A stretch of DNA of 20,000 nucleotides from Catajapyx aquilonaris (taxonomy: Eukaryota): the NCBI GenBank assembly GCA_000934665.2, contig JYFJ02001669.1:60184-80183 (forward strand), given 5' to 3'. The translations under genes were made by a program, and so were the position numbers. Each line of letters begins with the position of its first letter. Positions within the stretch are counted from its first letter, which is position 1. Shown here piece by piece: positions 1 to 20,000 of this stretch. The notes beneath the pieces are model-generated. The model saw nothing but the letters and a program-made list of their open reading frames with translations. It was not told where the DNA came from and searched no databases.

Positions 1-257
1 GAATAGAAATTAAAGCAATATGCTGTAATGATTGAAAATGATTAATGTGCGGCCAGTTTATTTTTTTATTTCACAGCCCCTTGGTAGGGCAGTGGCACAG
101 TTCCCTTTTTGTGGGACACAAGACTCTAGTTTGTACATGAACAATCAAGTGGGCACTTCATCAAGGCAAATGAATTAACGATAGTGCAGTTCAAAATGGA
201 TCATATAACATGCCTGGCGTAAATGAGAATTTTTAAACTGATGGCGGATGTAACTAG
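1..257 (+). repeat. 3' flank module of an F-box/LRR paralog lying upstream of the window
   Basis: Aligns by eye with the 3' flanks of gene A (~4799-5014) and of the fragment at ~13296-13547 (gaaattaaagcaat...tttcacagcccctt...gtaactag); homology ends after CTAG at 257. Confidence 0.85.
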
Positions 258-2939: not shown

Positions 2940-4357
2940 ATGAGGGAAGGTGAAGAGAACACTGTGGATGAGACAATGGCCACGAAGAGAAGGAGGGTGC
3001 ACAAGGGCAGCGGGGTGGAGGAAGAAGAGGAGAAGCCACGGGGAAAGGTATAAAATAAAAATTGTCCCTGCAATCTGTACGGCTTTGGAGTGACCGCACT
3101 ACTACTGTGCAACCTGTGGCCCTGCCAGGCACGGTACAATCACATTGCGTGATGATTTCAATCCAATTTCTTTGCAATTGCAGGCTAGCAGCAGGACGTT
3201 TTCCAGCCTGCCTGATGAGATGAAGGCAAAGGTGTTCTCGTACCTGGACAAGAAATCCCTCTACAGGAGCACTCTGGTGTGCAAATATTGGTTCAAGGTG
3301 GCCAAGGATTGGCTGGGTCTTAGGAAGAAAGTAATTTTGAGCCCGATGCGATTGACTCTGGAGGAATCAGTGCAGGTGATCATAGACAACAGTACCCATC
3401 TGATGTCGGTTACTCTGATGCACTGGAATGACGAGGATGGTGATTTGCTGCTGAAAGTAGTGGGCGGGAATCTTCCTCACCTGAAGCGTCTCATTGTGTC
3501 TAATATGTTGGTGCCACAGAAGACACTGGAACTGATTTCACGAGAGTAAGTAAAGGAGGGTCGATATGGTTCGTTGAGTGTGATTCATCGTCAGTTCATT
3601 GCTTTTATTTTTACGACCCAGGTTCAGCAAACTGAAGGACATATCCCTTAGAAGGTTTAAGAAGAACGAGAATTACTTGAGGCATCCCCTGGACATTTTG
3701 AGTGTCTGCCGAGAGCTAGAAAAGATAACAATAGATGGCCGATGTTACCCTCCAAACAAGGCCACCGGGGAAGACTGGCCAAAACTGACTGATGTATCAC
3801 TTCTCATGGGCTTTGCTGACAGGGAAGTAGAAATACTTGCCCCCAGCTTGGGGGGACAGCTGACGAAACTGACCATTGAATTCATCATTAATCTGGAGTC
3901 CTTCCTTCTCCTCGCACACTTCCCTCAGCTGGAGGAGCTGGAGATCCAAGACTGCCTCCACTTAACTGATGCTGGCCTGGAAGACGGGATTGGGAAACTG
4001 CGCAACCTGCGTAGCTTGAACCTGGTAAAGCTCTACTCCTGCACTGCACAGGCTTTAGAAAGGTTTTTCTCCAATCCGAACATTGTGGGTAGCCTGGAGA
4101 AGCTCAGCATTTTTGGTTGCTCAAAGCTGAACCAGCGATCCTTATCAGCCATTGCCATGAACTGCCCTCTCCTGAGTCATTTCTGCTTGAAGGAAACCAA
4201 CCAGGTCACCAATGCCCCACTCCTAGACCTGGTGAGGAGGTGCCGCAATCTCCAGTACCTCCGACTCATCGGGTGCAGAAAGCTGGACCTGAGTGCAGAG
4301 GCCCTGGGTCAGTTCCAGGCGGTGAGCAGCAAGCTTCAAATTTGTGCATCTCCGTGA
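2940..4357 (+). CDS. F-box/LRR-repeat protein, copy A (exons 2940-3047, 3184-3545, 3622-4357; 401 aa)
   Basis: F-box motif FSSLPDEMKAKVFSYLDKKSLYRSTLVCKYW and AMN1/FBXL-type Cys-containing LRRs (LEELEIQDCLHLTDAGL, LEKLSIFGCSKL, LQYLRLIGCRKL). Introns 3048-3183 (AAG|gtataa...ttgcag|GCT, phase 0) and 3546-3621 (GA|gtaagt...cccag|G, phase 2) join the ORFs in frame. The start codon and first donor are less certain. Confidence 0.9.
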
Positions 4358-5172
4358 TTCCACCTGGGTGACGCGTCACTCACAGAACAACGTCTCATCC
4401 TAAGAATTCCATGTTGCACATGAACAAACAAAAAGAGTACAGCCCTTACGGCGTATGTAATGAGTTTGAAGTGAAACTCATTATCTGTAGGAATTTGAAA
4501 TGTATAAGGATGGTTGAGTTGTTACGAGATAATCTTAAGGTTAACAGTTGTCACTAATCTACTTTTTGAAACAACCAGTATTATTAATGGCCAGTATTAA
4601 TTTCTTATGTTGTACTTTCCCAACATACTCTTTGTCACTTTTGTTCAACTTGTGATTGCAATACTCTGCATGATTGCAGTGCCTTATTTAATTGACAATC
4701 ACTGCCATACGGTGTGGTGTCTGAATCCACATGTTGAATGGTCAGGGATAGTTTGTACACGGAATGGCCGTTTGGCTGTATTGAAAATGTATGCCTTGAA
4801 TTGCAATTAAAGCAATGTGTGGTAATGATTGAAAATGATTAATATGCGGACAGTTCCCTTTTATTCTTTATTTCACAGCCCCTTGCTAGGTCAGTGCCCT
4901 TTTCGGGGGACAATAGACTCCAGTTTGTACATGATCAGCAGGGGGCAGATCAAAATGTATAGTAACATGCCTGGTGTGAAAGGGAATTTTTAAACTGATG
5001 GCGGACGTAACTAGATATGTACGCCACAGTATTGACATACCATGTAATGAATTGAAATTAAACTGACACAGCAGCACCACGTAATGAGCATGCCCAGCAC
5101 AGTAACCTGCCTATGAAAACCCGAAGAACATGAGTCCACAATCTTGTGCAAATCAGGGCCAGATTATCTCAA

Positions 5173-5420
5173 GCCTCTGAGGTGCAGGCCAAGATGCCGG
5201 GACAATCAGCGGCCCATTCCATGCTTCGTGACGAGAAGAAGTCTCTTGTGACTCGTGCAGCCTGGAAGAAGGGAGTCAGCAACCAACATTGTCCAGTAGA
5301 AGCAACGGTGAGTGTGGGATGATATTAAGCTAATTAACCTCAGTAACTGGGCCGCAGAGACTCACAATTCCTGTGCCTTGGTCACATCCTAAGAATTCCA
5401 TGTTGCGCATGAACCAAACA
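5173..5420 (+). pseudogene. Remnant of a deleted paralog: orphan copy of the optional exon plus intron, fused to a gene 3' end
   Basis: 5173-5307 is homologous to the gene C exon 9354-9506, including the gtgagt donor at 5308. 5308-5376 matches the following intron, then the sequence jumps to cacatcctaagaattccatgttgc (stop/3'UTR start). Confidence 0.8.
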
Positions 5421-5765
5421 AAAAAGGACAAAAAAGGTGGAGGGTAATTCCACTTAGGAAGAATCATTATCCAAAGATGAATATTTTGCAATAAAAACTA
5501 TTTAATCAAGCGTAATTATTCTAATTTTACAATTCCATGGTAGTTTTTTTTTTTGTAATTAATTTTAATGCTGTCTTCAGTGTGTGGTACCTCAGGTTCA
5601 TATATATTCCACTTCCCTAGACTGCACATTTGTAACTCACATTATGCTTACCGTATATTAACCTAGTGTCCCGACCGTCAGACGCCCTGTAGGAGCTCTA
5701 ATTAGTGCCAGAAATTATTAAATTATCGCAATAATAATTTCCTGGATAATAATCTCAAAGAGTCG

Positions 5766-6039
5766 GCCGCCATCTTGGGTGCGTTCCGACCGTCGCTTAT
5801 TCTCATATTCGGACGCAACCAGATGTTACGTCACTCTAAATCCGGACGCAACCGACATTTCTGTCAATTGTACTTCTAATTGTACTAATAGGCACGTGTT
5901 AATTTACGTAATGTACCAACTGCAATTGTATTATGAAGCGTGTGCGATTGCACTGTTTGTCGGGTTTAACCGGCTCCTTTGGTTCCAATCGAGAGGGAAA
6001 TATGGCAACAGGTGGTTGAGCAAATCCAAGATGGCCGCC
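5766..6039 (+). promoter_or_regulatory. Putative promoter of gene B with two YY1-type motifs
   Basis: GCCGCCATCTTG at 5766-5777 and CAAGATGGCCGCC at 6027-6039, the same arrangement as before gene A. Confidence 0.5.
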
Positions 6040-6231
6040 GACAATGGAACGATTCGAATTTATGCTGTTTACATAATTCCCTTTGCTGACCTTCGGGTGA
6101 TTGTTGCGACGCTTCAGCCGCCTCCCGATCGTAGGGGAGGGTCGCAGGGGCCTCTGGAGATACATCCGGAGCAGGATTGGGAAGGGACGGAGGAGGAAGG
6201 AAGGACACTGGGAAGCAGGGTGGTCGAGGCC

Positions 6232-7693
6232 ATGAGGGAAGGTGAAGAGAACACTGTGGATGAGACAATGGCCACGAAGAGAAGGAGGGTGCACAAGGGC
6301 AGCGGGGTGGACGAAGAAGAGGAGAAGCCACGGAGAGAGGTTAAAAAAATAAAATAAATATTGTCGGTGCAATCTGTACGGCTTTGGAGTAACCGCACCA
6401 GTACTGTGCAACATGTGGCCCTGCCAGGCACGGTACAATCACATCGCGTGATGACTTAAATTTCTTTGCAATTGCAGGCCGGCGACAAGACCTTTTCCGA
6501 CCTGCCCGACGAGATGAAGGCAAAGGTGTTCTCGTACCTGGAGGAGGAATACCTCCGTAGAAGCATCACGCTGGTGTGCAAGGATTGGTTAAAGGTGGCT
6601 AAGGATTGGCTGGGTCTTAGGAAGAAAGTAATTTTGAAGCGGCAGCGATTGACTCTGGAGGAATCAGTGCTTGTGATCATGAACAACAAGACACACCTGC
6701 GATCGGTTACGCTAATGAACTGGAATGGAGAGGATGGTGATACTCTGCTGAAAGTAGTGGCCGAGAGTCTTCCTCACCTGAAGCGTCTCAGTGTTTCTAA
6801 TACGCTGGTGCCACAGAAGACGCTGGAACTGGTTGCACGAGAGTAAGTACAGGAGGGTCAATAAGGAGCGTTGAGTGCGATTCATCGTCAGTTCATTGCT
6901 TTTATTTTTACGCCACAGATGCAGCAAACTGCAGGACATATCCCTAAAAAGTTTCAACTGTACTGAGGATTACTGGAGGCATCCCCTGGACATTTTGAGT
7001 GTCTGCCGAGAGCTAGAAAAGATAACAATAGGTGGCCGATGTTTCCCGCCAAACAAGGCCACCGGGGAAGACTGGCCAAAACTGACTGACGTATCGCTTC
7101 TCATGGACTTTGCTGACAGGGAAGTAGAAATGCTTGCCCGCAGCTTGGGGGGACAGCTGAGGAAACTGACCATTGAATTCGTCCTTAATCTGGAGTGCTT
7201 CCTTCTCCTCGCACACTTCCCCCAGCTGGAGGAGCTGGAGATCCGATCCTGTGGCTTCCTAACCAATGTTGGCCTGGAAGACGGGATTGGGAAACTGCGC
7301 AACCTGCGTAGCTTGACCCTGGTAAAGCTCTACTCCTGCACTGCACAGGCTTTAGAAAGGTTTTTCTCCAATCCGACCATTGTGGGTAGCCTGGAGAAGC
7401 TCAGCATAGCTTATTGCTCAACTCTGCACACCCGTTGCATCTCAGCCATTGCCATGAACTGTCCTCTCCTGACTCATTTCTGCTTGTGGAGAACCGGCGG
7501 GGTCACCAATGACCCGCTCCTTGACCTGGTGAGGAGGTGCCGCAATCTCCAGTACCTCCGACTCATCGGGTGCAGGAAGCTGGACCTGAGCGCAGAGGCC
7601 CTGGGTCAGTTCCAGGCGGCCAACAGCAAGCTTCAAATTTATGCATCAACGTCATTCCACCAGGGTAGCGCATCACTCGACGTCACATCCTAA
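6232..7693 (+). CDS. F-box/LRR-repeat protein, copy B (exons 6232-6339, 6478-6842, 6919-7693; 415 aa)
   Basis: F-box FSDLPDEMKAKVFSYLEEEYLRRSITLVCKDW followed by LRRs. Introns 6340-6477 (GAG|gttaaa...ttgcag|GCC) and 6843-6918 (GA|gtaagt...cacag|A) are at the same positions and phases as in A; the spliced frame has no stops. Confidence 0.9.
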
Positions 7694-9078
7694 GAATTCC
7701 ATGTCGCACATGAACAAACAAAAAAAAGTACAGCCCTTATGGTGGATGTAATGAGTTTGAAGTGAAACTCATGATCTGTAAGAATTTGAAATGTGTAAGG
7801 ATGGTTGAGTTTTTACGAGATAATCTTGAAGATAAAAGTTGTCCCTAATCTACTTTTTGAAACAATCAGTATTCATGGCCATTATTAATTTCTTATGATG
7901 TACTGTACTTTCCCAACATACTGTTTGTCACTTTGTTCAACTTGTGCTTGCAGTACTTTGCAGGATTCCAGTGCCTTATTTAATTGACAATCACTGCGAT
8001 AAGTCTGATTCCACATGTCGAAAGACCAGCGATAGTTTGAACACTGAATGGGCATTTGGCTGTATTGAAAATGTACGCCTGGGATTGAAATTAAAGCAAT
8101 GTGCGGTAATGATTGAGAATGATTAATGTGCGGCCAGTTCCCTTTTATTTATTCATTCATTTATTTCACAGCCCCTTGCCATAGCTCAGTGCCCTTTTTG
8201 GGGGACACGAGACTCCAGTTTGTACATGAACAATCAAGTGCGAGCTTCATCAGGGTAAGTGATGGCGTGAAAGTTTTAATCGCCAGTATGTTGTACTCTC
8301 CCAAAATACCGCTTGTCGTTGCGTAGAAGTGGTTGCGGTCCCTTATTTCCTGACTATTGTTGCAGGAAGTATCTGAATCCAAATGTTGAAGGTTCAACAG
8401 TGGATGCAAATCGACTGGATTATTGACATACACCATGTAATGAATGGATAATTTAAGCTGAAACAGCAGCATCATGTAATGAGCATGCCCGGCACAGTAA
8501 CTTGCCTATGAAAACACGAAGAACATTATCCCCAAAATCTTGTTGCAAATTGGGGGCCAGATTATCGCAATTAATTTTTTCCTTAATCAACATCAGACGC
8601 CATCTTGGGTGCGTTCCGACCGCCGCATCCGGTCCGTTCCTTTCCGATCATATTCGGACACAACCGAAAGGCGCGTCATTTCAAATCCGGACGCGGCCCA
8701 TTATTTTGATAATGAAGTCAAGTAATGAGCAGCCATTTAATTTATTCAATGCACAAAACTGCAGTTGAATAAAATATGTTGTATGATTGCTCTATTTGTC
8801 GGGTTTAACTTTATCCGGTTACAGGTCAATGGGGTGAAATCTGGCAACAATGCCAAGCTCGAAAAACCGTTCGAATTTCGTTTGGAACTTTTGATTATTA
8901 TTCTTTCGGGTCTCGGTTGATTGTTGGCCAGCCGCAGATCGGTTGGGGCTTGATTGTTGTTGGGAGGACAGAAGGTCGATCCGGACCCACAGGAGAGGGT
9001 GGGATTGGAAAGGGACGCAGGGGAACAACTAGGGGGAAGAAGGTGGGAGGAAGGGAAGGGTTCTGGATAGGAAGCAGG

Positions 9079-10813
9079 ATGATGGAGACTAGGAGGATGG
9101 CCAGGGAGGCTGAGGAGAACACTGTGGAGACAAGGGCCATCAAGAGAGAGAGGAAGGACATGCTCAGGGGGGTGGAGGAAGAGGAGCAATGGGGAGAGGT
9201 GAAATTAAATGGAAATTTCTATTGGTGTCATCTGCATGGCTTTGGGGTGACCGCACCAGTCCTGACCATCAGCCAATCATTTCGCATGGTACTGTCACAT
9301 GAATTTTCACATGGCCCCATGATTCAATGTGCGACAATCTGATTTTGTTTCAGATTGCAGGTGGGTTGGGTGCCTCTGAGGTGCAGGCCAATACGGTGGG
9401 ACAATCAGCGGCCGATTCCATGATTCATGACAAGGAGGAGTCTCATGTGACTTGTGCAGCCAAGACTATGGGAGGCAACAACCAACATTGTCCAGTAGAA
9501 GCGAAGGTGAGTGCGGGATGACATGAAGCTAATTACCTCGGTGACTGGGCCGCAGAGACTCACAATACCTGTACTTTAAAAGAATATTACTTGTTTACAT
9601 ACGCAATTTCTGGACAATTGCAGGCTAGCGGCAAGACCTTTTCCAGCCTGCCCGACGAGATGAAGGCTAAGGTGTTTTCGTACCTGGAGGAGAAGACCCT
9701 CCGTACGAGTGTTGTACTGGTGTGCAAGGATTGGTGCAGGGTGTCCAGGGAGTGGCTGGGTCTCAGGAAGAGGATGGTCTTGAACGGTCAGCATTTGACT
9801 CTGGAAGAATCGGTGCAGATGATCACGATCAACATGATCCATCTGGAGTCACTTACTGTGATGGACTGGAATAGAGTGAATGCTGATTCCCTGCTGCAAG
9901 TAGTAGCTGAGAATCTTCCTCACCTGAAGTGCCTCATTATTTATGATACCTTGGTGTCAGAGAATATGCTGGAACTGATTGCACGAGAGTAAGTAACCGG
10001 CGTATTTTTGGTGAACGCGTAGTGCATGAAGCGTCATTGATCATCAGTTCATAATTTTAATTTTCACGACACAGGTGCAGCCAACTGCAGCGCATCGACC
10101 TAGATTATTTCGATTGGAATAAGAAGTACTCGAAGCATCCCCTGGACATTATGAGTTCCTGCCACGAACTAGCAACAATAACCATATGTGATGTGAAGTT
10201 ACCTCCACTGTCGAACCAGGTCACTTGGAGTAACTGGCCGAAACTCACAGAACTGTCACTTCGCCCATTCAAGGGCGACAGGGAAGTGGAACCGTTGGCC
10301 CGCATTCTGGGAGGCCAGCTGAGGAAACTCACAATTAGTTTAATCCGTAAGCTGGAGTCCTTCCTTCTACTGGCACACTTCCCGCAGCTGGAGGAGCTGG
10401 GAATCATATGTTGTTTTTTCTTGACCGATGCTGGCCTGAATGATGGGATCGGGAGACTGCGGAACCTCCGCAGCTTGAGCCTGCGATACGCCACCGGCTG
10501 CACTGCACAAGGTTTGCAGATGTTTTTCTCCAACCCAAACGTGGTCGGCAGCCTTGAGAAACTCAGCCTTTTTAATTGCCCAACTCTGGATGACAATTGC
10601 ATATCAGCCATTGCTGCAAACTGCCCTCGTCTGACTCATTTCCACTTGATGAGTACCGATGAGGTCACCAACGCCCCGCTCCTTGACCTGGTGAGGCGAT
10701 GCGGCAACCTCCAGAACCTCCAACTCTTCTGTTGCAGCAAGCTGGACCTGAGCCCAGAGGCCCTTGGTCAGTTCCGGGCGGCCAGCAGCAAGCTTCACAT
10801 TCATGCAGTTTAA
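9079..10813 (+). CDS. F-box/LRR-repeat protein, copy C (exons 9079-9198, 9354-9506, 9624-9988, 10075-10813; 458 aa)
   Basis: F-box FSSLPDEMKAKVFSYLEEKTLRTSVVLVCKDW followed by LRRs. GT-AG introns 9199-9353, 9507-9623 and 9989-10074 (phases 0, 0, 2) give one open frame. The extra 153-nt exon is bounded by tttcag| and AAG|gtgagt. Confidence 0.88.

Positions 10814-11150: not shown

Positions 11151-11204
<54 letters not shown>
11151..11204. repeat. (ATA)18 microsatellite, 3' tail of the adjacent minus-strand LINE
   Basis: Perfect trinucleotide run; on the minus strand it reads AATAAATG followed by (TAT)n. Confidence 0.9.
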
Positions 11205-11205
<1 letters not shown>

Positions 11206-11925
11206 ATTTATTTCTCATCCCCCCCCCCAAAAAAAAAATCAGAGCGGGGAGGGGGACTCACCATTATTATAATATAAATGTATGTATTAATATATGGAAA
11301 ATGCATTTATCATACATTACATCAAGGGGTCATAGTATTATGTCGGTCTTTTAACAGGAAGAGGTAACTGGTAATCGAAGTAACTTTCTCTTAGGTGGTC
11401 CGTTAATAAATACTTATAGCGGGCGTAGTTCTCTTTCGAATTAGAGCCACGAGTAATATCCTCAGTTATAGAAGATTGGATGAAAGGTTCTACAATATTC
11501 TCTAAATTAATTTTATCTAAGTTGTTGAACCAGGTATCAAGAGATAATCCTGTGTCAAGAAACATCTTCCTAACCGCTGCAATCCATTCCAATTTATTTG
11601 GTTTCTTCACTGCAATTGCTGCTTGGAAACAGACGAGTGAAATTAGCTCAGAAGGGTCTGCCAGCGCTATTTTCAGTAGAAAGCGGCATAGTGCCTTTAT
11701 CAATTTAACCGAGAGGGGTCTATGGCCGGTTTCCAACCAGAGAAAATAGCCAGCTGTGTTTCTAGGGAGCATACTTTTTTATATAGCAAGTCTGAACCTT
11801 TTCCAATTCTTCTAAATGGGGTAAGCCCCAAATATGTGCGTTGTATAGCGGAACTGGTGCAATTGTAGCATCTAATAGTCTAAACGCTGTGTTAAGATAT
11901 ATAAGCTCATCTAAACCATCCATTT
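11151..11925 (-). mobile_element. 5'-truncated non-LTR retrotransposon, ORF2 post-RT region and 3' end (RTE-X/L2/CR1-like)
   Basis: Minus-strand translation AFRLLDATIAPVPLYNAHIWG...LEKVQTCYIKK, then after a frameshift LPRNTAGYFLWLETGHRPL. This matches the LINE post-RT pattern LFD..V.P.L.YG..IWG...IE.V...F.K...T......ELG..P. Ends in AATAAA + (TAT)n. The clade is uncertain. Confidence 0.8.
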
Positions 11926-11929
11926 ATGC

Positions 11930-12306
11930 TCATCTCAACCGTACAGCCAATCAATCGACATTCACAAGGATTGCAGGGGTTTATCTCCAAGCCAAACATG
12001 GTCGTCAGGCTTGAGATCCTCACACTTTCTAGTTGCTCGGTTCAGTACGACAATTGCATATCAGCAATTGCTGCGAACTGCCCTCGTCTGACTCATCTCT
12101 GCTTGGAGAGAAGCGACGAGGTCACCAACGGCCCGCTCCTTGACCTGGTGAGGAGATGCCGCAACCTGAGGCACCTTGAGCTCAACAAGTGCAGCCAGCT
12201 GGACCGGAGCGCAGAGGCCCTGGGTCAGTTCCGGGCGGCGAGCACCGAGCTTGAAATATCCATCACGGAAAGAGTTTGTACGGTACAGAACAGTAATGGA
12301 CTATAA
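11930..12306 (+). pseudogene. F-box/LRR fragment D: 3' half of the LRR exon
   Basis: QGLQGFISKPNMVVRLEILTL...NCISAIAANCPRLTHLCL...LDLVRRCRNLRHLEL is homologous to the last exon of A-C. The 5' part is missing next to the LINE; the 5' boundary is approximate. Confidence 0.85.
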
Positions 12307-12442: not shown

Positions 12443-12871
12443 TTGGAAATCCGAAACTGCTTCCACTCAGCTGATGCTGCCCTGGACGGAATTGGGAAAC
12501 TGCACAACCTCCGCAGGTTGACCCTGGTAGAGCTCCACCTCTGCACTGCACAGGCTTTCCAAAGGTTTTTCTCCAAGCCAAATGTTGTGGGTAGCCTTGA
12601 GAAGCTCAGCCTTGTCTTTTGCCCAAAACTGGACGATGGTTGCATATTAACCATTGCCATGAACTGCCCTCTCTTGACTCATTTCTACTTGATAAGAAAC
12701 AACCATGTCACCAAAGCCCCGCTCCTTGACCTGGTGAGGCGATGCGGCAACCTCCAGCACCTCCTACTCAACAAGTGCAGGAAGCTGAACCTCAGAGCAG
12801 AGGCCCTGGGTCAGTTCCAGGCGGCCAGCAGCAAGCTTCAAATTCATACATCCCAGATTCCACCTGATTGA
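12443..12871 (+). pseudogene. F-box/LRR fragment E: 3' part of the LRR exon fused directly to the upstream-promoter module
   Basis: EIRNCFHSADAALDGIGKLHNLRRLTL...QAASSKLQI follows ctctaattagggccagaaatt immediately, with no exon 1 or F-box exon. A full 3' flank follows to 13547. Confidence 0.88.
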
Positions 12872-13559: not shown

Positions 13560-14825
13560 CCAGAAGCTGAAGAGAATGGTTGGGACACTGTGGAGACAAG
13601 GGCCATCAAGAGAAAGAGGGTGGACATGGGCAGGGGGTGGAGGAGAAGCCACGGAGAAAGGTGGAAAATAAAATGAAAATTTGTTGGTGTCATCTGTATG
13701 GATTTGGGGTGACTGCACCAGTGCTGACCATCATAGCCAATCATTTTGCATGGAACTGTCACATTAATTTCTACATCTGGACAGCGATTCCATATCGGCC
13801 ATTTCTTTTCCCTTCGATAAAGATTGTTAAGATGTGCTTTTTGAAACAATAATGTCCAGTATGAAGTTCTTATGTTGCATTTCCCAACATGTCATCGTGG
13901 ATGCAAAATAGTTGTCTATTTGGACCGTGATTGTGAACTTTGACCTCGGATGACACCGAGGCATGGTTGACAGCCTGGGTCATTTTGCTGCCCTCTTTTC
14001 CACTCCTGCTTCTCAGGTTGTTTTCAAAAATTGGACCATCCTCAAGTCCACACCTGTACTTCTCTAGGAAATAATTATTGAAGAGCTACGTAAGGGCAAT
14101 TACTTAGCAATAATGTATCCCGGCTCGCGTTTGTTTCATTCGTTTTTATAAAACACACTATTTAGCTCAGATTTACCTCATGATTCACAAAACCTGCACT
14201 TAAAATGATTACTCCTTTTTTACATACATACGCAATTTCTTGACAATTTCAGGCTCGAGTCACGACCTATGCCAGTCTGCCCGATGAGATGAAGGCAAAG
14301 GTGTTCTCGTACCTGAAGGAGAATACCCTCCGTACGAGTGTCGCACTGGTGTGCAAGGACTGGTGCAGGGTGGCCAAGGAGTGGCTGGGGCACAGGAAGA
14401 AGGCGACCTTGGACGGCCTGAAATTGACTCCAAAAGAATAGGTGTGTATGATCAAGAGAAGCTGCAGGGCCTATCTGAAATGGGTTACTTTGATGAACCA
14501 GAGTGTAGCAAATTCTAATTAGCTGATGAAAGTAGTAGTGAAGAATCTTCCTCATCTGAAGGGCCTCATTATTTATGATACTTTGGTGTCACAGAATATG
14601 CTGGAACTGATTGCACGAGAGCAAAAGTAACCGGTGAATTATTGGTGAACGTAGTGCCGTATGACTCATTTCTGCTTGGTGAGAAGCGACGAGGCCACGC
14701 TGGTGAGAAGATGCCGCAACCTCCGGCACCTTGAGCTCAACAGTTGCAGCAAGCTGGACCTGAGCGCAGAGGCCCTGGGTCAGTTCCAGGCGGCCAGCAG
14801 CACCCTCCAAATTTCAATCGTGTAA
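13560..14825 (+). pseudogene. F-box/LRR pseudogene F
   Basis: Exon 1 remnant ~13560-13660 has a 1-nt frameshift. The F-box exon 14253-14620 has in-frame TAG at 14439 and 14520 and an altered donor (GA|gcaaaag). A deletion joins the intron to the last ~54 codons of the LRR exon (~14662-14825). Confidence 0.88.
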
Positions 14826-15125
14826 TGAGTTTGTACCGTACAATCATGTGCTTTCATGTTGTGCTTCCCTAATTACTGAGAATATCACTCCTACTATGTT
14901 TACCGAATATTCACTTAGTGTCCCGATCATCTGACACCCTGTAGTAGCTCTAATTAGGGCCAGAAATAAGTTTGCGGCATCTTCTCACCAGCGTGGCCTC
15001 GTCGCTTCTCACCAAGCAGAAATGAGTCATAGGGCACTACGTTCACCAATAATTCACCGGTTACTTACTCTCGTGCAGTCAGTTCCAGCATATTCTGTGA
15101 CACCAAAGTATCATAAATAATGAGG
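14564..15125. repeat. Long inverted repeat: arms 14564-14719 and 14972-15125, spacer 252 nt
   Basis: 14972-15125 is the reverse complement of 14564-14719 with about three substitutions and one 2-nt indel. Confidence 0.93.
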
Positions 15126-15256
15126 TCATCGGGTGCATGAAGCTGGACCTGAGCGCAGAGGCCCTGGGTCAGTTCCAGGCGGCCAACAGCAAGCTTCAAA
15201 TTTATGCATCAACGTCATTCCACCAGGGTAGCGCATCCCTCAACGCCACATCCTAA
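15126..15256 (+). pseudogene. F-box/LRR fragment G: extreme 3' end, nearly identical to copy B
   Basis: IGCMKLDLSAEALGQFQAANSKLQIYASTSFHQGSASLNATS* matches the gene B C-terminus. A 3' flank follows to ~15658 and a 5'UTR piece at ~15718-15789. Confidence 0.85.
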
Positions 15257-15789
15257 GAATTCCATGTCACACATGAACAAACAAACAAAAGTATAGCCCT
15301 TATGGTGGATGTAATGAGTTTGAAGTGAAACTCATTATTTGTAGGAATTTGAAATGCGTAAGAGTGGTTGAGTTTTTACGAGATAATCTTAAGGGTAAAA
15401 GTTGTCACTAATCTACTTTTTGACGCAATCAGTTTTCGTGGCCAGTATTAGTTTCTTATGTTGTACTTTCCCTGATTCCCAACATACTGTTTGTCACTTC
15501 ATGTTAAACTTGTGCTTGCAATACTTTGCAGGATTGCAGTGCCTTATTTAATTGACAATCACTGCGATAGGTCTGAATCCACATGCTGAAAGACCAGCGA
15601 TAGTTTGTACACGGAATGAGCATTTGGCTGTATTGGAAATGTACGCCTTGAATTGAAAGACTATGGGAGAGGCTGAAAAAATTAAACATATCACAAAGGG
15701 GCTGAAGCCGGGTTTATTGGAACGCTTCGAATTTCTTGCTGTTCAGTTCTCTTTTTGTTGAGCTTCGGGTTGATTGTTGCGAGGCGTTA

Positions 15790-16296
15790 AGGCCCATTCA
15801 CACAGGCCGTCGACGGTTTTGGTTTTTGGTCTCGTCGGCGCTGCGGACCAATCAGAACGGGCCCTCACGTAAACAATGTTTTACCTTTCTTTTTCCAGTT
15901 TTTTTTTGTTTGTTTTTCTTGTTGTTTTTTAAGGACACCGATGGGGCTCACTCTGTCTGCCATCCAGACATGGTTCGAGACTCAATGTGTCTGGCAGATC
16001 CCCACAATTTTGTATTCGGCCAATTTGGTATGGCTCGATCTCGATCGATCTCGATGACAACCGCTTTCACCATTTATTACGTAATGACGGACTTGCACCG
16101 TTTGGGCCAGGTACGTGTATGACAAAGCGTGGCACAAAGCGTTACGGGTTTATGACAAAATATTTTTCCCCAGATGGACGACCAGGATGCTGATGGCGGA
16201 CCAGGTCTTGGAGACGACGATGACGGGGACGAGGAGGATGACGATGTGCCAATTGTACAGCATTGGCGGTATGTGCAATATCTCTGTGGTACATGA
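15790..16296 (+). mobile_element. PIF/Harbinger-like transposon remnant (left end plus degenerate spliced coding fragment)
   Basis: Homology to the F-box 5'UTR stops at gcgTTA and is followed by (A)GGCCCATTCACAC, a Harbinger-type terminus at a TTA/TAA site. Putative exons 15934-16110 and 16174-16296 encode LADPHNFVFGQFGMARS (resembling the Harbinger HTH motif LA....F.....FG.A.S) and an acidic tail. No right TIR found. Confidence 0.45.

Positions 16297-16392: not shown

Positions 16393-16443
<51 letters not shown>
16393..16443. repeat. (TAT)17 microsatellite
   Basis: Perfect trinucleotide run; possibly a retroelement tail. Confidence 0.9.
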
Positions 16444-16444
<1 letters not shown>

Positions 16445-16655: not shown

Positions 16656-16775
16656 TCACAATACCTGTACTTTAAAAGAATATTACTTGTTTACATACAT
16701 GTGCAATTTCTTGACAATTGCAGGCTATAAGAGTCAAGACCTTTGCCAGCCTGCCCGATGAGATGAAGGCAAAGG
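16655..16775 (+). pseudogene. Stub of intron plus start of an F-box exon
   Basis: Matches the gene C intron ~9559-9623; acceptor at 16723, then AIRVKTFASLPDEMKAK before homology breaks. Confidence 0.85.
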
Positions 16776-17090
16776 GGAGGTTGGAAGGAAGAAGAAGGAT
16801 TGATGGAGACTGGAAGGATGGAGCGGATGGTGAGGGAGGATCAGGAGAAGGGAAGGACCACTGTGGATGAGACAAGGGCCATGAAGAGGAAGAGGATGGA
16901 CAGGCGGGTGGAGGAGAAGCCACGGAGGAAGGTGAAAAATAAAATGAAATCAAAACTTCCGTTGGTGTCATCTGTATGGCATTGGGGTGACCGCACCAGT
17001 TATGACCATCGGCCTTTTGCCTGGAACTTTCCGTACTTCTTGTTAATTGCAGGCTAGCAGCAGGACCAGCCTGCCTGATGAGATGAAGGC

Positions 17091-17890
17091 TCTGTTCCAG
17101 AGTCCTTTAGTAATTCTCCAGCAATGCCTTCAAATCTAGAGTCTAGACTATCCTCAGTCGATTCAGCACTTGCGAAGATTTCAGACCTTCTTAGAAAGCC
17201 CCACATTCAAAATTGGTATTTAGCAAATGCAGAGAGCAAAATTAATGAACTACGTTTGGGCCTTCAGGCTGTTGACAAACAATGCGAACAAGGATTGCTC
17301 TCCTCGGCGCCTCACTTGGAGCCAAAAGTCAAGTTTCATGGAAGGGAAAAGCTGAAACGGCAATCTTCCACTGCTGGAATTTACTGGACCTCTAAAAAGT
17401 ACACTGCAATTAGTCCTTTCACCAAGCCCACTGTAGAAATTACACAAATGTTACTGGAAAGTGCAAATGATAAATGTAGCATTCCTCAAGTAAAAGATTT
17501 TACTCCAAAACTGTGCGGTGCTGCTTCCGTTGAACAGAAAGCAATTGCTGTCCGTGGCATACTTACAAGTATGAAGCAGTTGAAGAGCCTTGAGCCCTGG
17601 TCAGATAAAAATTTACTTGCTCTTATCAAATTCGAAGAAGCTGATTTTAGAGTAGGATGGTTCTATGACTGCATATTAGAACCCTTTTTGAAACGACTGG
17701 AATCCACTTACACAAATACTCCAGTGGGAGATGCTAACATATTTTCTTAAAGATCCACGCAGTAAGGCCTTAAAAAGATTATTAGATGGCAGGAAACCAG
17801 AAAACATTGAACTCGTGTTGTTGCCTAGGTGTGTTAATAATAACCATTGGGTGTTGCTAGCAGCTCATGTGAAGGGAGATAGGAACATTT
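17091..17890 (+). mobile_element. Transposon-derived fragment encoding a truncated Ulp1/SENP-family (peptidase C48) domain, probably Mutator-like
   Basis: GWFYDCILEPFLKRL, then after a frameshift IELVLLPRCVNNNHWVLLAAHV, the Ulp1 WL.D.II..YL and P....HW.L motifs. It is cut before the catalytic Asp and Cys. The upstream EKLKRQ...TSKK...TKPT.E resembles animal MULE C-termini (inference). Intronless and AT-richer than the host genes. Confidence 0.7.
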
Positions 17891-18017
17891 ATTTTTTATT
17901 TTATTTTTTTATTTTTTACCCCGTGATAGAGCCAGTGGCTCTCTTAGGGGGGAAGGGGGTGGTTCCCTAGGGAGGGCGCTGTAATTTTTGAGTCATTTCT
18001 GACTTGTGAAAAGCACT
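17887..18017 (-). mobile_element. 3' end of a retroelement (short LINE end or SINE) with A-rich tail
   Basis: Minus strand reads CCCCTAAG AGAGCC ACT GGCTCT ATCACGGGGTA followed by (AAAAAT)n-like sequence, the same flanks as the SINE tail at 2009-2043. Confidence 0.75.
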
Positions 18018-19357
18018 GATCGGGAGACTGCACAACCTCCGTAGCTTGACCCTGCAATGCGCCTCCCGCTGCACTGCACAAGGTCTGCAGAGGTTTTTCT
18101 CCAATCCAATCGTGGTCGGCAGGCTTGAGAGACTCACACTTTCTCATTCCTCAACCCTGGACGACAATTGCATAGCAGCAGCCATTGCCATGAACTGCCC
18201 TCGTCTGACTCATTTCTGCTTGGTGAGAACCCACAAGGTCACCAACCTAGACCTGGTGAGGAGATGCCGCAACCTCCGGCACCTCCAACTCAAGTGGTGC
18301 AGGAAGCTGGACCGGAGCGCAGAGGCTCTGGATCAGTTCCAGGCAGTGAACAGCAAGCTTCAAATTAATGCATCTCCCTGATTCCACCTGGGTGACGCAT
18401 CACTCAACTTCACTTCCTAAGAATTCTATGTTGCACATGAACAAACAAAAAAAGTACAGCCCTTGTGGTGGATGTAATGAGTTTGAAGTGAAACTGATTA
18501 TCTGTAGGAACTTGAAATGTGTAAGGATGGTTGAGTTGTTACGAGATAATCTTAAGGTTAACAGTTGTCGCTAATCCACTCTTTTAAACGATCAGTTTTC
18601 ATGGCCATTGTTAATTTCTTATGTTGTACTTTTCCCAACGTAGTGTTTGTCACTTTTGTTATACTTGTGATTGCAATACTCTGCATGATTGCAGTGCCTT
18701 ATTTAATTAACTGCCATACTGCATGGTATCTGAATCCACATGCTGAAAGACCAGCGATAGTTTGTAGACGGAACGAGCGTTTGCCTGTGTTGGAAATGTA
18801 CGCCTGGAATGGAAATTAAAGCAATGTGCGGTAATGATTGAAAATGATTAATGTGCGGACAGTTCCCCTTTATTTGTTTATTTATTTCACAGCCCCTTGC
18901 TATAGGTCAATGACCTTTTTGGGGGACACTAGACTCCAGTTTGTACATGAACAATCAAGTGGGAGCTTCATCATGCCTGGCGTGAAAGTTTTCATCGCCA
19001 GTATGTTGTGTCTTCCCAACATACCGCTTGTCATTGCGTCAGTGGTTGCGGTCCCTTATTTCCTGACAATTGTTGCAGGAAGTATCTGAATCCAAATGTT
19101 GAAGGTTCAACAGTGGATGTGAATCGACGGGATTGACATACACCATGCAATGAATTGAAATTAAACCGACACAGCAGCATCATGTAATTAGCATGCCCAG
19201 CACAGTAACATGCCTATAAGAAAACCCGAAGAACATGATCCCCAAAATCTTGTGCAAATTAGGGGCCAGATTATCGCAATTAATTTTTCCCTAATCAATA
19301 TATCAGACGCCATCTTGGGTCCGTTCCTTTCTAATCATATTCGGACACAACCACATG

Positions 19358-19626
19358 CCCCCCGATGGTATCTCCACCTTATCGTGGTGGTGGGGGTTTG
19401 CGTTTCTCCCGTGACCCCAAGAGCTACGCCGGCGGTAGCTTCGTCTACTGGTAGGGCCACCCAAGCCGGACAGGTCTTTGGGATAGGAGACAGACTAAGA
19501 GAGATGCCAGTCTTTCCTCTCTTCTTTTTCCTCTTCGTTTCTCTCTCCATCTGTCCCACCTTTGCTTCTTCTTACAGCCAGATAGCCACAGTTGCTTTGG
19601 CTTCTTCCAAATAAACCAAACCAAAC
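19358..19626 (+). mobile_element. Non-autonomous bipartite LINE-derived retroelement, 269 bp
   Basis: 12-bp TSD CACAACCACATG at 19346-19357 and 19627-19638; the empty site is visible in the paralogous promoter at ~8655-8680. The 5' part CCACCTTATCGTGGTGG...GAGCTACGCC...GGTAGGGCCACCCAAGCCGGACAGGTC resembles the conserved 5'UTR of RTE-type LINEs (BovB/Expander). The 3' end is AATAAA + (AAACC)3. Confidence 0.82.
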
Positions 19627-19694
19627 CACAACCACATGGCGCGTCACTTCAAATCCGGATGCGGCCCATAATTATGATGCTAATGAAGTCAGGT

Positions 19695-20000
19695 CTTCAA
19701 GGCGAAGGCACCAGATGCGCCATTGGCCCTGACCTGTTGCACGATTACTTTAGGCGGGCGTACGAGGAGAGACCGTGGGATCCTTCGTTTTACCCGTGGC
19801 GTCTGGATCGCCCTGAGATGCCCATGCCACCATTTACTTCTCAAGAGGTTCGTGCTAAACTGCGCCGGTGCGAAAACTCAGCTCCCGGAGAAGATCGGCT
19901 GTAGTCCTACCATCATTGGAAAAGACTTGACCCTGAGGCGGTGCTCCTTTCGACACTGTTCAATATGTGCCTGCGTCACCGGCGTATCCCGGAAGCTTGG
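19695..20000 (+). mobile_element. 5'-truncated non-LTR retrotransposon RT N-terminal region (R2/NeSL group, Utopia-like), running off the window
   Basis: PFTSQEVRAKLRRCENSAPGEDRL*SYHHWKRLDPEAVLLSTLFNMCLRHRRIPEAW contains the RT domain-0 APG.D motif and FN.C....IP..W; in-frame TAG at 19902. Confidence 0.85.

Follow-up and report, generated by a model that had tools for sequence, protein, structure and literature searches.

The stretch of DNA analysed here is 20 kb of the Catajapyx aquilonaris genome (20,000 nucleotides (nt) of contig JYFJ02001669.1, assembly GCA_000934665.2, positions 60,184 to 80,183 of the forward strand). This window, in whose own coordinates all positions below are given, harbours a plus-strand, head-to-tail array of genes for F-box proteins with leucine-rich repeats (LRRs). 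The window was surveyed by means of six-frame open reading frames (ORFs), internal-repeat families and tblastn with the deduced protein. Besides three intact three-exon genes, designated A, B and C, the 20 kb contain six or more copies that are truncated or interrupted by stops. The period of the array is about 3.3 kb, with copies spaced by 3297 nt and then by 3146-3162 nt.

The spliced ORFs of A, B and C are unbroken, with GT-AG at all junctions and equivalent splice positions in the three genes. In gene A, exon 1 (2940..3047) starts with the ATG at 2940, comprises 36 codons specifying an acidic and basic N-terminus (...TKRRRVHKG...), and ends in AAG followed by a GT donor that allows an in-frame join to exon 2. 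Exon 2 (3184..3545), delimited by an AG acceptor and a donor reading A and then GTAAGT, encodes the F-box, a linker and LRR1-2, and exon 3 (3622..4357) encodes LRR3-11 and the stop codon, as assigned from a sequence match to FBXL2, an AlphaFold2 model and Foldseek. The product of gene A is 401 aa long. Gene B (6232..7693; exons 6232-6339, 6478-6842 and 6919-7693) and gene C (9079..10813; exons 9079-9198, 9624-9988 and 10075-10813) are likewise intact spliced ORFs with GT-AG introns and encode 415 aa and 407 aa, respectively. In exon 1 of each gene (A 2976-3011, B 6268-6303, C 9130-9165) a cluster of basic residues (TKRRRVHKG in A and B, IKRERKD in C) precedes an acidic run; judged by eye, the basic cluster looks like a nuclear-localisation signal.

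The remaining copies, all on the plus strand, are incomplete. Fragment D (11962..12258) is an LRR tail only, equivalent to residues 299-397 of A, and fragment E (12443..12844) retains only LRR7-11, residues 263-397 of A, within an open frame (ORF 12443-12871); both were identified by tblastn and alignment. Copy F (13593..14813; repeat family D20, tblastn) is decayed and carries an internal deletion, its pieces being an exon-1 remnant (13593-13652), an F-box exon (14250-14621) in whose translation two in-frame stops are seen, and an LRR tail (14661-14813). Fragment G (15122..15211; tblastn, repeat family D8) consists of the final 30 or so codons only. Repeat family D8 further aligns 15126-15425 with the 3′ end and flank of gene B (7563-7862) at 94% identity and, as A and B are only about 90% identical, this similarity indicates a more recent partial duplication of the B tail within the array. 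Scrap H (16715..16928; repeat family D20) is the start of an F-box (LPDEMKAK at 16751) that runs into exon-1-like sequence and contains stops, and fragment I (18019..18378; tblastn, alignment) comprises LRR8-11 only, residues 280-401 of A. A copy of the 3′-flank repeat found after each gene occupies nt 1..163 of the window (plus strand; repeat families D16 and D18), and the array therefore probably extends upstream of the window. The degenerate part of the array also holds two perfect trinucleotide microsatellites, (ATA)18 at 11151-11204 and (TAT)17 at 16393-16444. An earlier model-generated note, made from the letters of the window alone and hereafter called the sequence-only reading, had proposed birth-and-death evolution, and a tandem array with decayed copies is what the window contains and what such evolution would be expected to leave. 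Judged by sequence, the identification of the family as tandem FBXL-type adaptors of the birth-and-death kind is secure.

The F-box of all three genes is recognized by Pfam. With the F-box-like family PF12937 (cut-off 24.3 bits) the scores were 42.9 bits for A (E 4.3e-11), 29.7 for B (5.6e-7) and 31.3 for C (1.7e-7), and with PF00646 (cut-off 20.5) they were 28.4, 22.6 and 21.8 bits. The F-box of exon 2 matches those of beta-TrCP, Skp2, FBXW7 and FBXL17 in the PDB, while exon 3 matches FBXL2 (6o60_C, E 3.4e-14) and FBXL17 (E 1.1e-9) at the sequence level. An AlphaFold2 model of exon 3 of A, built on a 12-row alignment, had a pLDDT of 91.8 and a pTM of 0.90 and displayed ten strands alternating with helices. 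FBXL2, D3/MAX2, COI1, FBXL17 and Skp2 were its top Foldseek matches, the entries including 6o60_C, 6w66_B (TMq 0.71) and 1fqv_A (TMq 0.65). Pfam, the PDB sequence matches and the predicted fold thus agree with the prior assignment of these genes to F-box/LRR proteins of the SCF-adaptor type, and A, B and C are probable target-recognition proteins of ubiquitin ligases, of FBXL type. The F-box core had been described as invariant, which is true of the protein and not of the DNA: the 13 residues LPDEMKAKVFSYL are identical in A, B and C with synonymous differences in their codons (CCT/CCC, GAT/GAC, GCA/GCT and TTC/TTT). The same LPDEMKAKVFSYL is still intact in the decayed copy, at 14277.

Immediately C-terminal to the F-box lies an LRR solenoid of 11 repeats, defined by the LxxLxL motif and numbered here from its first L. 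The consensus repeat of FBXL proteins contains a Cys and is 26 residues long. The repeats of this family are irregular, with lengths of 23-29 residues and a Cys at position 9 in three of the 11 repeats of A, a canonical look being confined to LRR7 and LRR9-11. When the DSSP assignment of the AlphaFold2 model was placed on the repeat register by our own arithmetic, strands extended from position 3 to positions 7-9 and helices began at position 14, so that positions 7-11 correspond to the end of the strand and the first part of the strand-to-helix loop.

It is at these five positions that the paralogues differ most. The variable peptide strings which the sequence-only reading had listed for A, B and C were all located where it had placed them, both in the protein alignment and in the codon view. 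In exon 3, 76 of the 729 aligned nt distinguish A from B (89.6% identity), and the differences are clustered. Five identical runs of at least 40 nt are present (59, 56, 53, 47 and 41 nt), a number that none of 10000 shuffles reached (mean 0.83), and 37 neighbouring differences lie within 3 nt of each other as compared with a shuffle mean of 21.1 (0 of 10000 reaching 37). The longest run of 59 nt is unexceptional on its own, being attained in 855 of 10000 shuffles. The shuffles thereby substantiate the description of long identical A-B stretches interrupted by dense patches of change. That such patches follow each motif is not borne out for A and B alone: their amino-acid differences at positions 7-11 number 2, 1, 4, 2, 1, 2, 4, 0, 3, 4 and 0 from LRR1 to LRR11, being dense at LRR3, 7, 9 and 10 and absent at LRR8 and LRR11, but the addition of C reveals variation at positions 7-11 in every one of the 11 repeats. 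In total, 23 of the 55 A-B residues at these positions differ, against 29 of 233 elsewhere in the repeats. The hypervariable patch of LRR3 (3650..3664 in A, plus strand; codon alignment and register table) reads RRFKK in A, KSFNC in B and DYFDW in C, and by arithmetic the equivalent patches in A are at 3947-3961 (LRR7), 4112-4126 (LRR9) and 4190-4204 (LRR10).

A scan of the register with 19 five-position windows placed the maximum of pN, the proportion of nonsynonymous differences, at positions 7-11 in all three gene pairs, while pS, its synonymous counterpart, was flat across the register for A-C and B-C. None of 10000 random sets of 55 codons reached the pN of positions 7-11. As a pattern, the periodic concentration of replacement change on one surface stripe, as the model predicts it, is secure. 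The sequence-only reading had assigned the variation to a predicted substrate-binding face and had proposed that variable sites be mapped onto a structure. On the register of the DSSP assignment the variation forms a periodic stripe of strand end and loop along one rim of the sheet. This is not the classical concave face, whose positions 2, 3 and 5 are conserved (omega 0.21-0.39). The stripe may be what contacts the substrate.

Evidence for selection was sought first by Nei-Gojobori counting, in which the ratio of nonsynonymous to synonymous rates (dN/dS, or omega) was split by repeat register. Over whole genes dN/dS was 0.52-0.69 in the pairs of A, B and C. At positions 7-11 it was 1.91 (A-B), 1.90 (A-C) and 1.60 (B-C), and at positions 7, 8, 10 and 11 it was 3.08, 3.01 and 1.83, whereas the classical strand positions 2, 3 and 5 gave 0.37, 0.39 and 0.21 and the LRRs outside positions 7-11 gave about 0.46, 0.38 and 0.36. 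For the 46 codons of the F-box the values were 0.28, 0.26 and 0.39. Purifying selection acts on the F-box and on the LRR scaffold. Positions 7-11 and the other LRR positions differed in their ratio of replacement to silent change (Fisher p 0.003 for A-B, 3e-6 for A-C and 3e-5 for B-C). Replacement change at positions 7-11 also surpassed the divergence of non-coding DNA: for A-B, 35 of 132 sites against 145 of 1273 in the same duplication units (p 7e-6), for A-C against introns p 8e-5, and for B-C p 0.03. Among all copies, including those that the sequence-only reading did not use, pN at positions 7-11 was higher than pS of the rest in 18 of 21 pairs, and in four of the six pairs formed by fragments only.

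Codon site models were fitted with our own GY94/F3x4 likelihood code. For the three genes, M2a was favoured over M1a (twice the log-likelihood difference, 2dlnL, 12.9, p 0.0016), with 27% of sites at omega 2.7, and M8 was favoured over M7 (13.1) and M8a (12.9). A second set of seven copies comprised the three full and four partial sequences; fragment G was dropped as too short, N-terminal portions without homology were masked in D, F, G and I, and columns with fewer than four of the seven sequences were removed, leaving 138 C-terminal codon columns (107-246 of the exon-3 alignment). On an IQ-TREE tree of these copies, with branch supports of 47-100, M2a was preferred to M1a by 26.6 (p 1.7e-6) and M8 to M8a by 27.3. 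LRR sites with a posterior above 0.9 fell at positions 7-11 in 20 of 27 cases for the three genes and in six of six for the seven copies. In a register-partitioned model, where the stripe and its flanking codons share a local synonymous rate of their own, omega of the stripe was 2.33 for the three genes (likelihood-ratio test (LRT) 12.1, p 5e-4) and 2.68 for the seven copies (LRT 17.4, p 3e-5). Multiplied by the 19 possible windows, these p-values are still below 0.01, and none of 40 parametric bootstrap replicates of the LRT reached the observed value (maximum 3.82).

These results are best explained if the array, duplicated in tandem and subject to birth and death, encodes substrate receptors of the FBXL type for SCF ubiquitin ligases. 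Each protein consists of a short charged N-terminus, an F-box presumed to dock on Skp1, and an 11-repeat LRR solenoid presumed to bind the target. Because identical register positions stack along the solenoid, the stripe at positions 7-11 should make up one continuous edge of the horseshoe, and it would be this edge that diversifies between copies faster than silent sites. Each paralogue would then most likely recognize a different target or target variant. We infer that the replacement excess in the stripe is adaptive; any biological role, such as the antiviral, anti-transposon or genetic-conflict function that the sequence-only reading had proposed, is putative. Diversifying selection on the stripe is likely, with a probability of roughly 0.6 on the sequence evidence, and is unproven with seven sequences.

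A number of observations weigh against this interpretation. When the site models were given fast and slow rate classes per site, the test for omega above 1 lost its significance in the three genes (2dlnL 1.65, p 0.44) and in the seven copies (5.2, p 0.074); the preference for M8 over M7, the comparison that the sequence-only reading had recommended, was thus obtained along with those for M8 over M8a and M2a over M1a, but the signal did not withstand rate variation among sites. Silent differences between A and B are themselves clustered, with a pS of 0.23 at positions 5-15 against 0.074 farther off (Fisher p 0.003) and of 0.28 in the flanking codons alone (p 0.0007), the A-B non-coding divergence being 0.114. 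Measured against such local silent sites, the A-B replacement excess was not significant (p 0.16-0.31). A-B synonymous differences are also uneven along the gene, with none in the 21.5 sites of exon 1, 19.7 in the 84.7 sites of exon 2 (8 in 28.2 for the F-box alone) and 18 differences in 207 intron sites. This unevenness and the silent clustering near the patches indicate a mosaic ancestry, by gene conversion or clustered mutation, which can mimic positive selection. Within positions 7-11 alone the comparison of replacement and silent change was not significant (p 0.08-0.16), a test underpowered by its mere 30 or so synonymous sites. The partition is post hoc, its discovery in A, B and C having preceded the tests on the same genes; the data are limited to three full and four partial sequences, of which the partial ones are probably pseudogenes. 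Multi-nucleotide mutations inflate omega, several patch codons differ at two or three bases, and our likelihood code, which is not PAML or HyPhy, makes no provision for such mutations. The claim of positive selection on the stripe accordingly has the standard site models and the register-partitioned model with local synonymous rate on its side, and the rate-class models and the A-B comparison with local silent sites against it.

Relaxed constraint could in principle produce much of this picture, if the loop residues at positions 7-11 were unconstrained (omega about 1) and local clustering of mutations, or multi-nucleotide events, gave a semblance of speed. The equal fit of the rate-class models without a class of omega above 1, the clustering of A-B silent changes in the neighbourhood of the patches and the many patch codons with two or three altered bases are all as such a process would have them. 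However, the synonymous rate pooled over stripe and flank is not raised over the whole tree (rate_near 1.01 and 0.86 for the two sets), omega of 1 is rejected by the partitioned model in both sets and by its bootstrap, pS for A-C and B-C stays level where pN peaks, and the divergence of introns and flanks stays below the pN of positions 7-11. On balance we regard relaxed constraint as unlikely.

Templated mosaicism is an alternative in which short-tract gene conversion would have imported the patches, silent flanks included, from paralogues or pseudogene fragments that had diverged further; the A-B pattern would then be one of exchange and not of new mutation, and selection may or may not sort the patches afterwards. 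Beside the patches, A-B synonymous divergence (18 of 80 sites) is indeed above that of non-coding DNA (145 of 1273; p 0.007), with no such excess at distant synonymous sites (9 of 123; p 0.23), silent divergence in exon 2 exceeds that of the adjoining introns, and the array is rich in fragments able to serve as donors. Yet within the window no other copy has the patch of A or of B, and the patch of LRR10 differs in every copy in which it is present. Patch regions and scaffold have the same nearest neighbours in their distance matrices, and A and B each have derived patch states of their own, in a comparison of low power with donors searched for in the window only. The recombination screen that had been called for was made with our own implementation of the pairwise homoplasy index (PHI) test and was not significant, 143 to 299 of 2000 permutations being as extreme, although with six copies and 97 codon columns it is a weak test and the uneven A-B silent divergence continues to point towards mosaicism. 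Exchange of this kind seems quite improbable as the source of the whole pattern.

A bolder version would have the truncated LRR fragments act as a germline "patch library", donors for short-tract conversion that rewrites the 7-11 stripe of the intact receptors. The silent clustering near the patches and the uneven A-B silent divergence are compatible with such a library and no donor was found in the window; we hold the idea to be highly doubtful. If true, it would represent an animal intracellular recognition repertoire of ubiquitin ligases diversified by templated exchange, intermediate in concept between the NLR clusters of plants and receptor diversification templated by pseudogenes.

That the array is non-functional, made up of decaying duplicates whose frames are open by chance, is extremely improbable: truncation of most copies in the window and in-frame stops in one of them speak for it, but each of the three genes keeps a frame of 401-415 codons open through splice junctions that are conserved, omega is 0.36-0.47 for the scaffold and 0.26-0.39 for the F-box, and the F-box core is identical despite silent changes.

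Diversification of FBXL-type receptors by selection on the stripe, the favoured interpretation, may be set against what is known of related proteins. A HMMER scan of 1.84 billion representative proteins returned none at E <=1e-30 and, like a profile search, distant relatives only. A word-index search with the LRR exon yielded a single match among 599 candidates, a 397-aa LRR protein with 33% identity over 52% of the query, which is without an F-box match and was set aside as uninformative; matches in a protein atlas were generic F-box/LRR clusters. The nearest proteins of matching size and architecture, retrieved by the profile search, were hypothetical F-box/LRR proteins of Blattodea (Diploptera punctata, Coptotermes, Cryptotermes and Blattella) at 27-35% identity. 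Together with the short GT-AG introns, relatives such as these point to an animal. Another relative, a protein of 386 aa encoded on a 1356-nt contig (P0027), is collinear with the whole LRR exon (31% identity, four gap positions in total), and its F-box is 45% identical to that of the window over 42 residues. The family had been proposed to be lineage-specific: no close homologue turned up in the collections searched, but relatives of the same architecture do occur, at 27-35% identity, in cockroaches and termites and in P0027, and the proposal is qualified to that extent. In Diploptera punctata the relatives have consecutive locus tags on shared contigs (L9F63_017102/017103, P0110/P0155; L9F63_019710-019712, P0172/P0063/P0154) and, to judge from this order, may also be tandemly duplicated. 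Some of the patch positions vary among the Blattodea paralogues, as seen in protein sequences only, and the literature searches made brought up no publication about them.

With the well-known FBXL receptors (human FBXL2, FBXL17 and Skp2; plant D3/MAX2, COI1 and TIR1) the products of the array share an N-terminal F-box followed by an LRR solenoid of strands and helices. Their identity to A in structural alignments is 13-23%, however, and they are single conserved genes and not fast-evolving tandem arrays. Orthology to a named FBXL was considered and rejected, as the match to FBXL2 breaks up into six stretches that overlap and lie in shifted repeat registers, and no protein reached E <=1e-30. 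In plant NLR/R proteins (nucleotide-binding LRR receptors and other resistance proteins), solvent-exposed LRR residues (xxLxLxx) are hypervariable, and their genes form tandem arrays with pseudogenes. Hypervariability that is periodic and tied to the repeat register, in tandem arrays with pseudogenes, is thus common to both systems; here, in contrast, the variation has moved away from the conserved positions 2, 3 and 5 to a stripe at positions 7-11, and the effector module is an F-box and not NB-ARC. The expanded F-box families of nematodes and plants resemble the array in having tandem copies with pseudogenes, an F-box under purifying selection and change focused in the recognition domain. 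For Caenorhabditis elegans, PMC8120010 reports genes duplicated in tandem, with conservation of the F-box and a target-binding domain in which replacement change accumulates, and cites Thomas 2006 for dN/dS among paralogues. The nematode families use FTH or FBA domains and not LRRs (PMC8120010), whereas the present family employs LRRs with a strict structural periodicity and its copies are known from this window alone.

Other open frames in the window are less informative. No Pfam match at E up to 5 was obtained for the ORFs at 17082-17747, 17692-17967, 11341-11778 (minus strand), 19455-19901, 19687-19998 and 15706-16119, and an Rfam scan of the window gave zero matches. A plus-strand frame of 222 codons (17082-17750) is overlapped in a different phase by one of 92 codons (17692-17970, plus strand). 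A search with 17082-17747 as a longer protein produced no database relative, and the pair of frames may be a decayed mobile-element gene. A possible cysteine-protease-like (Ulp1-like) motif there was unsupported by Pfam or the protein search. The frames 11338-11778 (minus strand) and 19455-19998 (plus strand) may resemble the ends of reverse transcriptases of long interspersed nuclear elements, a likeness equally unsupported and without a Pfam match. The minus-strand frame 11338-11778 sits just upstream of fragment D, which itself is without everything before about LRR8.

F-box families that evolve rapidly are believed to let cells direct ubiquitination against shifting targets, for instance pathogens or selfish elements. 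Nematode and plant families are the well-studied examples, and the window adds a compact, LRR-based instance from another lineage. A pattern of this kind is already known from worms and plants; particular to the present case are the LRR recognition domain and an unusually clean periodicity. The analysis also carries a caution, in that the same data return significant or non-significant positive selection depending on how site-to-site rate variation and mosaicism are modelled. The register-bound variation at positions 7-11 maps the likely specificity-determining surface of these proteins, and A, B and C constitute a natural set of variants for binding studies.

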